Source: Eledone cirrhosa (lineage: Eukaryota). Taken from it: DNA of 64,000 nt. The DNA lies in contig OZ024740.1 of the NCBI GenBank assembly GCA_964016885.1, positions 35,898,001 through 35,962,000 of the forward strand, read 5' to 3'. Position numbers and translations under genes: made by a program. Below, piece after piece: positions 4,185 through 42,890 of this stretch (the first letter of the stretch is position 1; each line of letters starts with the position of its first letter). A model generated the notes under the pieces. It was given only the letters and a program-made list of their open reading frames with translations, searched no databases and had not been told where the DNA came from.

Positions 4185-4528
4185 ATTCCGTTTTCGAATT
4201 TGTTTTGCAAGATTTCTTATCTGAAAACGTGTGTTGAAAGAGATATTGTTATACTTTGGGAGGGTCATGTTGTCAATAAAGACACATTCACCTGTTGGTT
4301 TTCATTTCAATTTATTATAAATTTCCGGTTGGACACAACAAAGGAGAGACACAAAATAAAAACCCAGTCACTGAAGACGTCACAGAATGCGTGATGAAAG
4401 AGCGTTGACAATATATAACCATCCGTTTATCGAACCAAGTAACCAACCAACCAACCGGAAATTTAAAGTGAACCAACAGGTGCGTGTGTTTTTATTGGCA
4501 GCATGGCCCTCCCAAAGTATAACAATAT
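4185..4528. mobile_element. Non-coding Penelope pLTR fragment with internal inversion (same family as 18455-19450 and 42405-42890)
   Basis: Shared tail motif atattgttatactttgggagggtcat in both orientations, plus a hammerhead-like motif at 4367-4409. Confidence 0.7.
4367..4409 (+). ncRNA. Type I hammerhead motif, cleavage triplet apparently mutated
   Basis: gtca-CTGAAGA-c-gtcac[agaatgc]gtgat-GAAA-gagc-GT-tgac; G occupies the U16.1 position. Confidence 0.55.
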
Positions 4529-5236
4529 CTCTCTCTCTCTCTCTATATATATATATATATATATATATCAAACCCCAGACTACCATTTGCCTCCATCATG
4601 GATCAACTAAGCGCTCTTGCCATAATAACACATTTTGAATTGCTTATCCTCAAGAACTGCCTGTAAATAATATTATTTTTTCTTTCCCATTACCCTATCA
4701 TGTTCCACATCACCCCCTATTTTTTCTTCTTTCTTTTTTCTTTTCACTTCAAAAACCTTGTTTGTAAATAATATTATTCTTTCTTCCCCATTTCCTTAAT
4801 ATGTTCAACATCACATCCATACAAATTCCCCCCTTTGATAATGCATAAAATGCCGAAACCGGTAATAGACAATTATTAAATGTATAAGTAAGTAAATAAA
4901 TGCCATTGTTAATTAATAAATAAATAAAGTAATACCTTAACACTTCACACAAAGTAAAATATTTTGTTTTAAACATTTTCTAACCCAGAAAAAAGAGAAA
5001 AAAATAAAAGGAAAAAAAAGATTTTTCTTCCTAATAATCGTCATTTTCTCACTTTTTTCATATATATATATATATATATATATATATATATATATATACT
5101 GTAGTAAAAGTTTGGTATAAATATATAATGGTAGGAGCACTCAGTCCATAAGATGAGTTTAGTATAAATAATTACACGTTTCGTTGGATTCTTGACCCCA
5201 GCTTATTTAGCTTGTCATAATAAAAATAAATATAAA

Positions 5237-5350
5237 AATAAAGATGGCCGCCTGAGTTTATTTATATATATATATATATATATATATATATATATATATA
5301 TATATATATATATATATATATAAAATAAACTCAGGCGGCCATCTTTATTT
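5237..5350. repeat. 27-bp inverted repeat around a (TA)n tract
   Basis: aaataaagatggccgcctgagtttattt ... aaataaactcaggcggccatctttattt. Confidence 0.8.
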
Positions 5351-5494
5351 ATATATATCTACATATATATATATGTATTATATATATATATATATATATA
5401 TATATAATGAATTTGTATATATATATATATATATATATATATATATATATATATATACATGTGCATGTATCTATCTATCTATCTATCTAATTAG

Positions 5495-5584
5495 CAAATT
5501 GGAGTTGATAAAGATAAATTAAGAAATTACTGCCTGGGTTACATTGGATGTGGTTTAGTGCTGTTTATAGCCTTTGCATTACAG
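5495..5584 (+). CDS. ABCB1: ABCB1-like exon (TM8), 90 bp, phase 0/0
   Basis: ttAG acceptor, CAG|GTAAGT donor. Translates [30 protein letters not shown]; the human equivalent ends ...GIISFITFFLQ at the same splice position. Confidence 0.85.
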
Positions 5585-6190
5585 GTAAGTAAAGTTTTGA
5601 ATATTTCAAGAATCTGATTATATTTCTTATTAAAGTACGTGAATCTGAAAATACTCTGTCTTTAAAGTAATATTAATCTTACCAAAATACGCTACACGAA
5701 GGCAACAGAGGGCCCCTTACAAAATTATTGGCGAAGCCACACACGCCAAAGGTATTTATCTTCAACCGGTTGTTGGTTTTGTTTTATCAACTTTGAAACT
5801 TCTGTTGTGATGTAATATACTAGATGGTTTATAATAACTGCATTCTAGCTGTAATTAATATTTAGATGGCTAGATTATAACCCATACTTCTTGTATAGGT
5901 TTCTTATATTATGATAACTACCAATGTAAATTCCAATATGAAAGTGTGTTATGGTGCAATCTATAGAGTTCTAAATGGTTAGTTATTTCAAGTAAAATGC
6001 TGGAGCCAACTTAATTCCTATATGATAATTATTATAAGACTATATATATATATATACATACATAATTATATATATATATTTATCTCCCTCTCTCTCCACG
6101 CCTCTCTCTCTCTCTGTATATATATATACATACATAAATAAGACTTGTAAGTCGACAGGTTCGAATATTAACTTCGTTTATTCATAGTCA

Positions 6191-6251
6191 CTGTTATATA
6201 TATATATTTCGGTGATAACCCTTATGCAACAGCTATAACCTCATCAGACAG
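6191..6251 (-). ncRNA. Type I hammerhead ribozyme motif (Penelope pLTR type)
   Basis: Minus strand: ctgt-CTGATGA-ggttatagc[loop]gttatcacc-GAAA-tatatatata-TA-acag; stems I, II and III all pair. Confidence 0.8.
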
Positions 6252-6293
6252 CTAGAATTAGAACAGAAAAAAAAACAGAAAAACATAACGAGG

Positions 6294-40199: not shown

Positions 40200-40607
40200 G
40201 TGTGTTGACCGAATTTGACGGAGGTTATCCTTTTGAAATAAACATACACACGACGCTCATCTCTATGTTGATATATGATATAAATAATGGGATTGATGAG
40301 TTAATATCTGTATACAACAACTACAACGGTACGCGATGGGGCCCACCCACAGCCCCGGCGGACAGAATCGAGAAGGCGTTTCCCCGGCGGACGGCAAGGG
40401 AGACGCGCTGGAAAAGCCACTCCAACTCGCGGGGCTCACACCTGTGGTTGGCCATCTCAGCGCCTATGGTGGTGAGTAAGGAGGTAGCCCTGGGGCCGAG
40501 GACACCAGAAGTCTCCACTGCCAGGGGTACGACCGCAAATCTGTCGGAGAGCGACCAGTATTTGAGGAGTTTGGCCCCCTCAGCCCGATGTGCAGCAGAA
40601 CCTGGGT
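40200..40607 (-). mobile_element. CRE-clade 3' end (C-terminus and 3' UTR), inverted relative to 38020-39073
   Basis: PGSAAHRAEGAKLLKY...ELEWLFQRVSLAVRRGNAFSILSAG..*. Confidence 0.8.
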
Positions 40608-41029
40608 ATATATTCATATATTGAAGGCAGATACTGAAAATAAAAGAGTGTTGTCATATAGAGAGTGAAGAGAAACAGAGAGTAAAGCAGTTAAATTATA
40701 GAGAGGGTGAAAGAGAGAGAGAGAGAGAGAGAGAGAGAGAGAGAGAGAGAGAGAGAGAGAGAGAGAGAGAGAGCATGAGACGACGCTCAGCTTTATAATA
40801 TTTGAGAATGAAGAGCGACAGAGAGAGTAAAGCAGTTAAATTATAGAGAGGGGAATGATCTATTATAGAGAGAGTGAAGAGCGACGGAGAGAGAAAAGCT
40901 AAGAAACTATAGGGAGGTGTGTAGGATACATACATAATACATACACACGACACTCAGCTTTATAATATTATATATATATATGTATATATATATATATATA
41001 TATATATATAGAGAGAGAGAGAGATCTCG

Positions 41030-41145
41030 AAAGGAAGAAAGGCAAAGTTAACCTCGATGGGATTTGAACTCAGACCACCGTGAACCGGAACAAATACTGA
41101 GGCACTTTTTGTTCGACACCACACCAACTCCGTCAATTCACCGCC
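41030..41145 (-). mobile_element. Diverged OK/Nin-like SINE 5' part
   Basis: gaaaggcaaagttaacctcgatgggatttgaactcag. Confidence 0.55.
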
Positions 41146-41711
41146 ATGTGTTTATAGAAAGTTGGCTAGACATATAAAGACATGTAGAATCACGTGCAAT
41201 GGAAGTAGTATATTTGGAAGAGAATTCGTATACAGACAGCTTTACGTCAAGTTTATCGTATTTGAAAATGTCGATGTTTCTTTTCTTGTTACATTGAAAT
41301 TCATTTCTAGAAGTGACCAATGACGTATCATATTTGAGATTACAAGGCTTGTTTTACGGTTCCGATGCTGTTAAATATCGAGATATATTTAACATAAAAA
41401 AAGTGTTTTTTCTCCAAAATGGCTGACTGAACACACACACACGTTTTTTCAAAAACATTTTCCCGTTCTTTTCTCATCTCACTCACTATCTTTCTGTTTC
41501 ATTTTTTATTTCTCATTCTATCTTCTGGTGAAGACTTGTGTCCGAAACGTAAATACTAATTTCCTACTATATCAAGCCTTAATTATATATATTTCTTTAT
41601 TGTACTCTGTTGTTTGCTTTGATGTTTCCGTTTACTTTTTGCACCCCCCCTCTCTCTCTCTCTCTCTCTCTCACTCTCTCTCTATATATATATATATATA
41701 TATATATATAT

Positions 41712-41880
41712 AATAATAATACAAGGACGATTTATAAAGACTTCATTACGTTTATTCATTGGTGACGCGCGTTTCGCTATTGATCAGCTCTAGGTTCGAT
41801 CTGTATCGATCTGGCTCGACTCTGACATCACCAATCAATAAACGTAATGAAGGCTTAACAAATCGTCCTTGTATTATTAT
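41712..41880. repeat. Fold-back pLTR remnant (~53-bp arms) with half a hammerhead
   Basis: ataataatacaaggacgatt...attggtga is reverse-complementary to tcaccaat...aatcgtccttgtattattat; minus strand GAAA-cgcgcg-TC. Confidence 0.6.
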
Positions 41881-42404
41881 ACTCTGTTTAGCTCTACACC
41901 TCGCCACTGTCGTGAACCTAAACATTGACTGCTCACCTGGGTCAACCTACAGTAACTTCACGTTACGGTCCCTGGATATATATATATATACATACACATA
42001 CACACACATATATATATATATACACATATATATATACATACACACACACACACACACACACACACACACACACACACACACACATATATATATACACATA
42101 TATATATACATACACACACACACACACACACACACATATATATATAATAATAATAATATTAATACTTATATATAAACTATATATAATTATAAACAGGAAA
42201 GGTCAGTATTTTTTTATTTTTTACCACATTATTACCAGTATGAAAAATAGCTGAATGTAAATACATCAGATGTCTTACAAAGCAGGAAAATAAAGTGCAG
42301 AACAATCAAAACTATGTTTAATACATTTTATTGCTGACAATCGTTTCTTCCAAACAGCCGTTTAGAATCATATATATATATATATATATATATATATATA
42401 TATA

Positions 42405-42890
42405 TTTCGTTTCTGAATTTTTTTAGCAAGATTCTTTATCTGAAAACGTGTGTTGAAACCGATATTGTTATACTTTGGGAGGGTCATGTTGCTAATAAGA
42501 AACACATGCACCAGTTGCTTTCACTCCAATTTATTATAAATTAAATTATAAATTTAAATAATTTATAAATTTCCGGTTGGCTGGTTGGTTCCACAACCGG
42601 AAGGTTGTTCATATATTGTCAAAGTTCTTTCGTCACACATTCTGTGACCTCTTCAGTGACTGGGGTTCTTTTCTTTGTTTTGTGCCTCTCCTTTGTTGTC
42701 CTACGCCATCTTGTTTTTGTGTGACACAAAAACAAGATGGCGTAGGACAGAACAAAGGAGAGGCAACCAACCAACAGGAAATTTATAAATTTTTTAAATT
42801 TATAATTTAATTTATAATAAATTGGAGTGAAAGCCACTGGGGCGTGTGTTACTTATTGGCAACATGACCCTCCCAAAGTATAACAATATA
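42405..42890. mobile_element. Non-coding fold-back Penelope pLTR element, ~95 bp upstream of an exon
   Basis: Tail motif atattgttatactttgggagggtcat in both orientations; central palindrome at ~42690-42760; hammerhead at 42618-42660. Confidence 0.75.
42618..42660 (-). ncRNA. Minimal type I hammerhead ribozyme motif
   Basis: Minus strand: gtca-CTGAAGA-g-gtcac[agaatgt]gtgac-GAAA-gaac-TT-tgac. Confidence 0.7.

Follow-up and report, generated by a model that had tools for sequence, protein, structure and literature searches.

The closest described relatives of the elements treated here are Hydra-clade Penelope-like elements (PLEs), among which Hydra-1_Obim of Octopus bimaculoides has a (TA)n target and a canonical hammerhead ribozyme (Craig et al. 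2021, PMC8557442). For a second PLE, Poseidon of Anolis, two internal start sites make a tail, both strands of AT-rich DNA are cut, the hammerhead is protein-assisted and insertion is normal with dead ribozymes (Frangieh et al. 2024, PMC11167929). Retrozymes that lack long terminal repeats (non-LTR retrozymes) carry type I hammerheads in non-coding repeats, and their dependence on PLEs has been proposed (Cervera and de la Pena 2020, PMC7229834; Li et al. bioRxiv 10.64898/2026.07.22.740005). Further background agrees (a 2013 rotifer paper, two reviews and the 2026 retrozyme preprint), the largest published hammerhead count found is that of axolotl (126,247 motifs) and a 2026 repeat annotation of Octopus vulgaris reports 31 recently active Penelope-like families. 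The present analysis concerns hammerhead motifs in the introns of a transporter gene of Eledone cirrhosa, within a stretch of 64,000 nt (assembly GCA_964016885.1, contig OZ024740.1, positions 35,898,001 to 35,962,000, forward strand) that is called the window. An earlier note, made from the letters of this DNA, had listed about 11 intact and six decayed motifs.

These motifs very probably fold as type I hammerheads and form the 3' ends of young PLEs, most of them 5'-truncated, which occupy (TA)n tracts across the genome; in the intron studied they are likely passengers and not host regulators. A structure-aware scan for the core CUGANGA/GAAA/NUH (stem I of at least 4 bp, stem II of at least 2 bp and <60 nt, stem III of at least 2 bp) identified nine type I hammerheads in the window, with core starts at 6247-, 9304-, 11226+, 13057-, 18650-, 21692-, 22704-, 23557+ and 42656-, while 100 block-wise dinucleotide shuffles of the window, which set the chance level, gave a mean of 0.08 and a maximum of 2. 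A tenth complete motif, 7473+, was read by eye; its stem I has 10 bp, its stem III is ACGAUCGU and its stem II is a 113-nt hairpin that none of 200 shuffles equalled in stability (z -5.2). The core letters CUGANGA, GAAA and NUH were present in type I order at all 11 listed sites, with full pairing of the stems at ten. The exception, 26323-, has a C.A mismatch at 15.2-16.2 and one further change in stem II, and both substitutions are private, being absent from its copy in a duplicate of the gene region (described below) and from its relatives. Judged by these letters, 26323- is likely impaired and the other ten motifs are intact, which leaves the earlier count standing but for one site. The motifs and related sequences of the window are as follows.

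3758..3808 (core 3763), plus strand: family G hammerhead-like motif with U4A core CAGAAGA and 5-bp stem III, in an inverted-pair insertion at 3690-3918
4367..4410 (core 4371), plus strand: decayed family A-like hammerhead, U16.1 lost and a stem II mismatch, in a short insertion at 4186-4527
4835..4864, plus strand: U3/A8-type core-like motif with almost no stem I, matched only by the duplicate locus
6190..6252, minus strand: family D hammerhead, the tail of an element of ~230-320 nt; this copy is 5'-truncated
7463..7615, plus strand: family F hammerhead, stem II of 113 nt, palindrome ACGAUCGU; it ends a Hydra-clade PLE on the 3' side and is sense to the host gene
9242..9312, minus strand: family C hammerhead (AUGCGCAU), on the arm 9119-9986
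11218..11288, plus strand: family C hammerhead, on the arm 10247-11411, sense to the host gene
13000..13065, minus strand: family B hammerhead, intact, predicted cut after 13008
16793..16858 (core 16801), plus strand: family B hammerhead with G12 lost, on an inverted arm, sense to the host gene
16989..24987: irregular (TA)n tract of 8 kb that holds A, X and B2 insertions
18611..18655, minus strand: family A hammerhead with intact core and a 2-bp non-palindromic stem III
20650..20685 (core 20682), minus strand: family X core variant UUGAAAA...GCAA CCGGU A, 3' end of a very young PLE, insertion 20529-21010
21635..21700, minus strand: subfamily B2 hammerhead
22648..22712, minus strand: subfamily B2 hammerhead, inverted partner of 23557+
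23550..23613, plus strand: subfamily B2 hammerhead, sense to the host gene
26265..26331, minus strand: family E hammerhead with two private substitutions, in a minimal insertion (26221-26466) assigned to a Hydra-clade PLE
41525..41556, plus strand: decayed hammerhead, A6 lost, with intact relatives elsewhere
42618..42660, minus strand: family A-type hammerhead, in a short inverted-pair insertion at 42403-42886

Among the sites that had been called decayed, 4371+, 16801+ and 41525+ are so, while 20682- carries a variant common to its whole family and 28996- lacks a core. The latter was rejected as a hammerhead; it belongs to an abundant short TA-flanked element with inverted arms (28906-29033, minus strand, and 39184-39311, plus strand; 54 blast matches in the loci examined), which may be an old hammerhead derivative, as one relative has CTGATGA at the corresponding place. 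A minus-strand match at 41527, whose stem III has 22 nt, was put down to chance. The listed motifs fall into six families (A, B/B2, C, D, E and F), in line with the at least six proposed before, and the palindromic stem III inserts CGAUCG, UGCGCA and UAUAUA were also seen. Stem III is AUAUGUAU in B2; that of family A (18650, 42656) is non-palindromic (AGAACU).

Support for the fold comes from an alignment of 14 distinct Hydra-type copies, which has no variation in the core columns and pairing in 94.9% of cells. Both partners differ between copies in nine of the 21 pairs, and seven of these nine belong to stem II, which covaries across families; the covariation score was reached by none of 500 shuffles, and slid control structures pair in 35-61%. 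The stem II covariation goes beyond the scan criteria because the scan required just 2 bp there. Core conservation and covariation among genomic copies, whose absence the earlier note would have counted against the motifs, are thus both present. A covariance model from 14 natural copies, three of them from the window, matched nine window sites, including 16801+ and 26323-. Rfam matched no hammerhead family in the window among 141 matches at E<=10, which were otherwise AT-rich miRNA noise and two tRNA-like matches. This silence, together with the read errors that are possible in the 8-kb irregular TA tract and the many inverted duplications, might suggest chance motifs or assembly artefacts in low-complexity DNA. 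That explanation is refuted by the nine motifs against 0.08 expected, by the recurrence of the motifs at many loci with covariation and by the occurrence of the B element in contigs of two public runs, where presence only was scored.

Stem III was an exact palindrome in 135 of 231 matches across all loci then examined, with overlapping loci counted twice. Consensus-core stems III are unfavourable as monomer hairpins (+2.3 to +5.6 kcal/mol), but their self-duplexes reach -10 to -10.5 kcal/mol in C and F and -8 in D. Dimer action through stem III is therefore plausible for most families on these modelled energies, and the description of the motifs as Penelope-type hammerheads in (TA)n tracts, with palindromic stems III suited to dimers, was borne out.

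The elements to which the motifs belong were assigned by open reading frame (ORF) type and motifs. Ten of the 11 listed motifs are 3' ends of 5'-truncated, ORF-bearing PLEs, eight of the Hydra clade and two of the CCHH type. The following features of the window are parts of such elements.

12959..16986, minus strand: family B insertion assigned to a Hydra-clade PLE, with a truncated arm (15457->12959) and an inverted arm (15445->16986), (TA)n-bounded
14522..15457, minus strand: family B ORF remnant with reverse transcriptase thumb, CxCx5C linker and Hydra-type GIY-YIG endonuclease
18455..19460, minus strand: family A 5'-truncated PLE with a GIY-YIG remnant from 18853 to ~19460-19540 (PF01541, E 3.6e-5), CX4CxxC linker, CCHH type

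The arms of the family B insertion are 98.8% identical, and both 13057- and 16801+ lie inside it. Identity was 97-100% in all 127 scored genomic matches of family B, a good number of which lie in open frames of 738-745 codons, and full copies have a single ORF of 737 residues with reverse transcriptase (RT) and C-terminal GIY-YIG. The B and F ORFs, read by eye, show DKT, RWR, CNCR..xxC, CxxC before E and CxH after N, without CCHH; this motif-by-motif reading covered B and F, and B2, C, E and G are known from ORF remnants. For the three B2 sites a same-strand ORF, ~86% identical, lies ~1.6 kb upstream in six of 12 loci with the motif, and the 3' untranslated region (UTR) contains a TA tract. 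A Hydra-type endonuclease ORF lies upstream in seven of 18 loci of family C, and a Hydra ORF upstream in three of six extended stretches of family E and in five of seven of family F, the latter with two intact 811-codon frames. By ORF type and motifs B, B2, C, E, F and G are assigned to the Hydra clade, and (TA)n insertion with a 3' hammerhead was found for each of them. The B tandem unit measures ~4.0 kb and the F ORF with its 3' UTR ~5 kb; neither has the size under 3 kb given for the clade, a trait that is descriptive and not diagnostic. Among named proteins, the one most like that of the element is a hypothetical protein of Argonauta hians (39%), and Pfam returned no family for the full B and A ORFs.

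The relatives of family A have open frames of up to 1167 codons with the same hammerhead ~210 nt past the stop. From their linker, read by eye as C-x4-C-xx-C, and a CCHH-type GIY-YIG at the C terminus, A and X are assigned to canonical CCHH-type PLEs, Neptune or Nematis; X may be of Neptune type. The core of 20682- (UUGAAAA...GCAA) was common to all 40 scored X copies, which are ~100% identical over 461 nt; this excludes local decay. The X core is of U3/A8 type with A13C and looks degenerate, a PLE with a CCHH-type endonuclease lies upstream of it, and X looks like the youngest element in this analysis. In family G, whose motif at 3763+ is absent from the earlier list, the U4A core CAGAAGA was found in 43 of 45 matched copies, with a Hydra-type ORF upstream in three of 18 loci; five structured matches in the 600-kb random sample described below correspond to roughly 25,000 genome-wide. 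A further family, H (7983-9118, minus strand; 11412-12816, plus strand; pieces at 18000-18095 and 27201-27392), frames the family C pair and is the 3' end of another CCHH-type PLE. Its 3' UTR is of microsatellite type, its one-sided tail measures 40 nt, its core reads UUGACAA...GAAA with no clear stem I, and a tandem unit of 5.4 kb occurs at another locus. An assignment of H and X to Naiads was dropped, since both have C-terminal CCHH-type endonuclease ORFs upstream.

The earlier note had proposed a mostly non-autonomous ribozyme community, invisible to ORF annotation. In this form the motifs would belong to a retrozyme-like population spreading as small circular RNAs with PLE proteins in trans, a reading to which family D lends itself: ten of 11 copies start at one fixed point ~120 nt before the core (the query excluded that start), and no PLE ORF adjoins the motif in the one set of D loci examined. 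Most genomic copies are short, and tandem hammerhead arrays exist in the genome with periods of 310 nt and 556 nt. Against this, the relatives of A, B, B2, C, E and F carry ORFs for reverse transcriptase and endonuclease (RT-EN) upstream of the same hammerhead, which refutes the non-autonomous reading for these families and places ten of the 11 sites in ORF-bearing families. Two GIY-YIG ORF remnants lie in the window itself, the 5' ends of the ORF-bearing families vary as truncation predicts, and no tandem retrozyme array of ~170-400 nt units was found within the window. The absence of coding capacity that characterizes retrozymes was seen in D alone. A retrozyme-like community is thus quite unlikely as a general account, and D (6247-) is, from its fixed start, likely the only non-autonomous family among those of the window.

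Two further short hammerhead elements related to D, each with an apparent fixed 5' start of its own beside TA, are likely further non-autonomous families. A retrozyme-like array lies 4-7 kb upstream of the window (310-nt period, 7.6 copies, 99% alike); its eight hammerheads on one strand and one inverted copy have the layout of a PLE insertion. The 556-nt array lies elsewhere in the genome.

The ends of the insertions point to a mechanism. In tandem B copies the predicted cut lies ~190 nt before the AUG of the next unit, and insertions end at two positions past the predicted cut (49/138 nt in B, 43/134 in C, 51/148 in E, ~55/160 in D and 70/207 in F). As a rule the two arms of an inverted pair differ, one having the short end and its partner the long one; this holds for 21 of 23 B/C/E-type pair rows and for all six G pairs. 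Because the ends lie past the cut and the whole motif is kept, the template would be uncut or re-ligated RNA. The RT-EN protein would nick both strands of AT-rich DNA, as the work on Poseidon (Frangieh 2024) suggests, and reverse transcription would start at two internal sites downstream of the ribozyme on an uncut tandem transcript. Such a course would yield one long arm and a short inverted one, with a tail on one side only, and the TA tract would serve as a repeated landing site. The hammerheads may cut weakly, as dimers via palindromic stem III or aided by protein, and so trim tandem read-through RNA. The amplification of G and X with non-consensus cores fits such a weak dependence on cleavage.

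One step of this scheme has an alternative that leaves the family assignment untouched. On the model of Cervera and de la Pena 2014, the hammerheads could cut the tandem transcript to monomers, which would be re-ligated to circles and copied by rolling reverse transcription into tandem and tailed insertions; a circle would also explain insertions that run past the predicted cut into the 5' UTR of the next unit. Head-to-tail B units of ~4.0 kb do occur, and cores are strongly conserved across divergent families. Ribozyme-dead mutants of the anole element nevertheless inserted normally in vitro, with no RNA-seq reads ending at the cut (PMC11167929), and X, with ~100% identical copies, and G, with its U4A core, amplify without a consensus core. 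A circular template is on balance somewhat unlikely, and an uncut tandem template is preferred.

To place the window in its genomic context, hammerheads were counted in two samples. The first, sixty stretches of 10 kb placed by random numbers on ten chromosomes that make up 2.17 of 3.0 Gb, contained 43 motifs against 0-4 in shuffles, and nineteen stretches on smaller chromosomes, with coordinates picked blind, contained 25, of which 22 were distinct (three were repeats of one core). Both samples together gave ~65 motifs in 790 kb, and the covariance model alone gave 45 matches. The weighted genome estimate is 0.26 million (bootstrap 0.17-0.36 million), with the three repeats still included, and a stricter rule gave 0.22 million; stems II >60 nt and variant cores escape the scan, which does not distinguish active from inactive motifs. 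Counts of 1 and 4 in the random sample suggest only ~5,000 ends for B/B2 and ~20,000 for A. First-look totals of 78,483 and 30,245 candidates do not represent copy numbers, and no copy number was taken from them.

The probability of meeting at least nine motifs is 0.17 in a 64-kb stretch and 0.06 in one of 40 kb, and the intron is not clearly richer in hammerheads than the rest of the genome. The dense set that had been reported in the transporter-gene introns is therefore dense in absolute terms and not relative to this genome. Motif counts track TA content (Spearman 0.50), which is 15% in the listed span against 4.6%, and 38 of the 43 random-sample motifs lie at most 270 nt from (TA)5, compared with 20% of random points.

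The host was confirmed as an ABCB-type transporter gene on the plus strand, five exons of which translate to an ABCB-type transmembrane domain.

2248..2394, plus strand: exon without Pfam match, taken to be ABCB-type from the likeness of its translation
5498..5584, plus strand: ABCB-type exon before a 22-kb intron, without Pfam match alone
27587..27664, plus strand: ABCB-type exon after the 22-kb intron, without Pfam match alone
35392..35487, plus strand: ABCB-type exon, PF00664, E 0.013
42987..43187, plus strand: ABCB-type exon, PF00664 (ABC_membrane), E 1e-9

The 22-kb intron (5585-27586) contains ten of the 11 listed sites, and exons of the nucleotide-binding domain lie ~20-27 kb beyond the window end. 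Pfam gave no family for three of the five small exon-like pieces, and a homolog search with a short ABC exon gave no match. A 98%-identical duplicate of the gene region, either a paralog or an unmerged haplotype, lies at ~34.66-34.74 Mb, 1.2 Mb upstream. It retains three of 12 sites (6247, 26323 and 42656), lacks the other nine and has insertions of its own, among them a separate B-type insertion and a 777-codon open PLE frame.

Three intact motifs (7473, 11226 and 23557) lie in the orientation of the host gene, and so do all three that are clearly decayed. This orientation might be expected of intronic ribozymes domesticated as regulators of the ABCB pre-mRNA, comparable to the RECK hammerhead that is conserved in amniotes. 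That explanation is highly improbable: the 98%-identical duplicate lacks all three sense intact sites, the sites are all members of dispersed repeat families, and density is not significantly above that of the genome. Core loss affected none of eight antisense motifs and three sense motifs (Fisher p 0.055), and the sense share of intact motifs is three of 11 (binomial p 0.11). The sense-biased decay hints that sense copies matter to the host as a cost, which is a lead rather than a result. The link of the hammerheads to the transporter gene is incidental.

Other sequences fill the introns. An inverted, displaced copy of a later ABC transporter exon lies at 27979-28643 on the minus strand (PF00664, E 4e-4); it matches a stretch ~9 kb past the window end and is also found in the duplicate locus. 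A tRNA-derived repeat like a short interspersed element at 26487-27184 forms an inverted pair between TA tracts (Rfam tRNA, 41.4 and 32.6 bits) and may be mobilised by PLE machinery. Later introns are filled by 30642-34129 (minus strand), 45486-47296 and 47326-63159, presumably a near-full RTE/R4-like long interspersed element and several tandem L1/Tx1-like copies, judged by their translations.

Several observations weigh against the reading of the motifs as PLE terminal hammerheads. In addition to the Rfam result given above, any PLE ORF was found within 2.5 kb upstream of only five of the 43 random-sample motifs, some clearly of another family; few ORFs near random motifs are expected from heavy truncation, without proving it. 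The duplicate intron contains no clean empty site, as parts of it are rearranged or unalignable, and the comparison yields absences only. The structure in the covariation alignment was written from the same sequences, and the statistics ignore kinship. Stem II of B, D, E and A folds no better than shuffles (z -0.5 to -1.7), and the gain from a stem III dimer is small for B and B2 (-3.2 and -2.2 kcal/mol) and absent for A (+1.4). The C pair of the window has two long ends; the other exception to the end rule is one mis-paired row. Self-cutting of the window hammerheads is itself a prediction from sequence.

At the locus itself these are ordinary PLE terminal hammerheads, with nothing special about the transporter gene. 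Its interest is modest, and greater in the genome-wide scale and the core variants, both of which are still estimates. We put forward tentatively, as a possible but doubtful wider picture, that about a quarter of a million intact-looking hammerheads, ~2x the axolotl number in ~1/10 of the DNA, stem in large part from a recent burst of the Hydra clade, which has been described as small, with families side by side that have different fixed cores (consensus, U4A, and U3-A8 with A13C) and with sense intronic copies perhaps preferentially broken. If true, this would be a natural experiment on the need for cleavage in PLE transposition and on the cost of intronic ribozymes to host pre-mRNAs, and U4A would be a new active natural core variant. 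The young Hydra-clade families with intact ORFs are candidates for the first biochemistry of their clade; their two sharply fixed ends predict priming sites, and the fixed core variants could probe the need of PLEs for the hammerhead in transposition.

For Octopus, Hydra PLEs with hammerheads and (TA)n targets are already on record. Four features look new, namely the scale, a tail of ~90 nt, the length of stem II and the fixed U4A core of one family. The literature search found no cephalopod hammerhead census and no U4A family, although Lunse et al. (RNA Biol.) and the supplements of Cervera 2014 and Perreault 2011 may bear on U4A and long stem II; the part of Perreault 2011 available mentions U3-A8, A6C and U4C variants and not U4A.

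Retrozymes are tandem arrays of 170-400 nt units, whereas the window motifs are single or inverted-pair ends of long elements, and the retrozyme pattern fits only the array upstream of the window. The pLTR hammerheads of PLEs are alike in being type I, with many families per genome and mostly single truncated copies, and in having opposite-strand pairs 100-700 bp apart, palindromic helix III, the U3-A8 variant and predicted dimer action (Cervera and de la Pena 2014, PMC4209133). They number ~2,000-9,000 minimal motifs per genome, compared with an estimated 0.2-0.3 million here; stems I-III are longer here than in the minimal type, and no U4A family is mentioned in the available part of that source. 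Poseidon shares two internal start sites downstream of the hammerhead, an optional tail and an AT-rich target. It belongs to another PLE clade, with starts inside the ORF, a 30-40 bp tail and measured activity (PMC11167929), whereas activity here is predicted from sequence and both ends of B lie in the 5' UTR, ~90 nt apart. The Hydra clade, including Hydra-1_Obim, is closest, with a C-terminal GIY-YIG, DKT, RW(K/R), CxCx5C, CxxC, CxH and no CCHH, a (TA)n target, a canonical 3' type I hammerhead and an inverted 5'-truncated copy (PMC8557442). In that account units are <3 kb and families few, stem II is short in the Hydra list and the one-sided tail of other PLEs is 30-40 bp; in E. cirrhosa elements reach ~4-5.4 kb with 3' UTRs of 1-2.5 kb in several young high-copy families, stem II measures 30-113 nt and the one-sided tail ~90 nt (137 in F).

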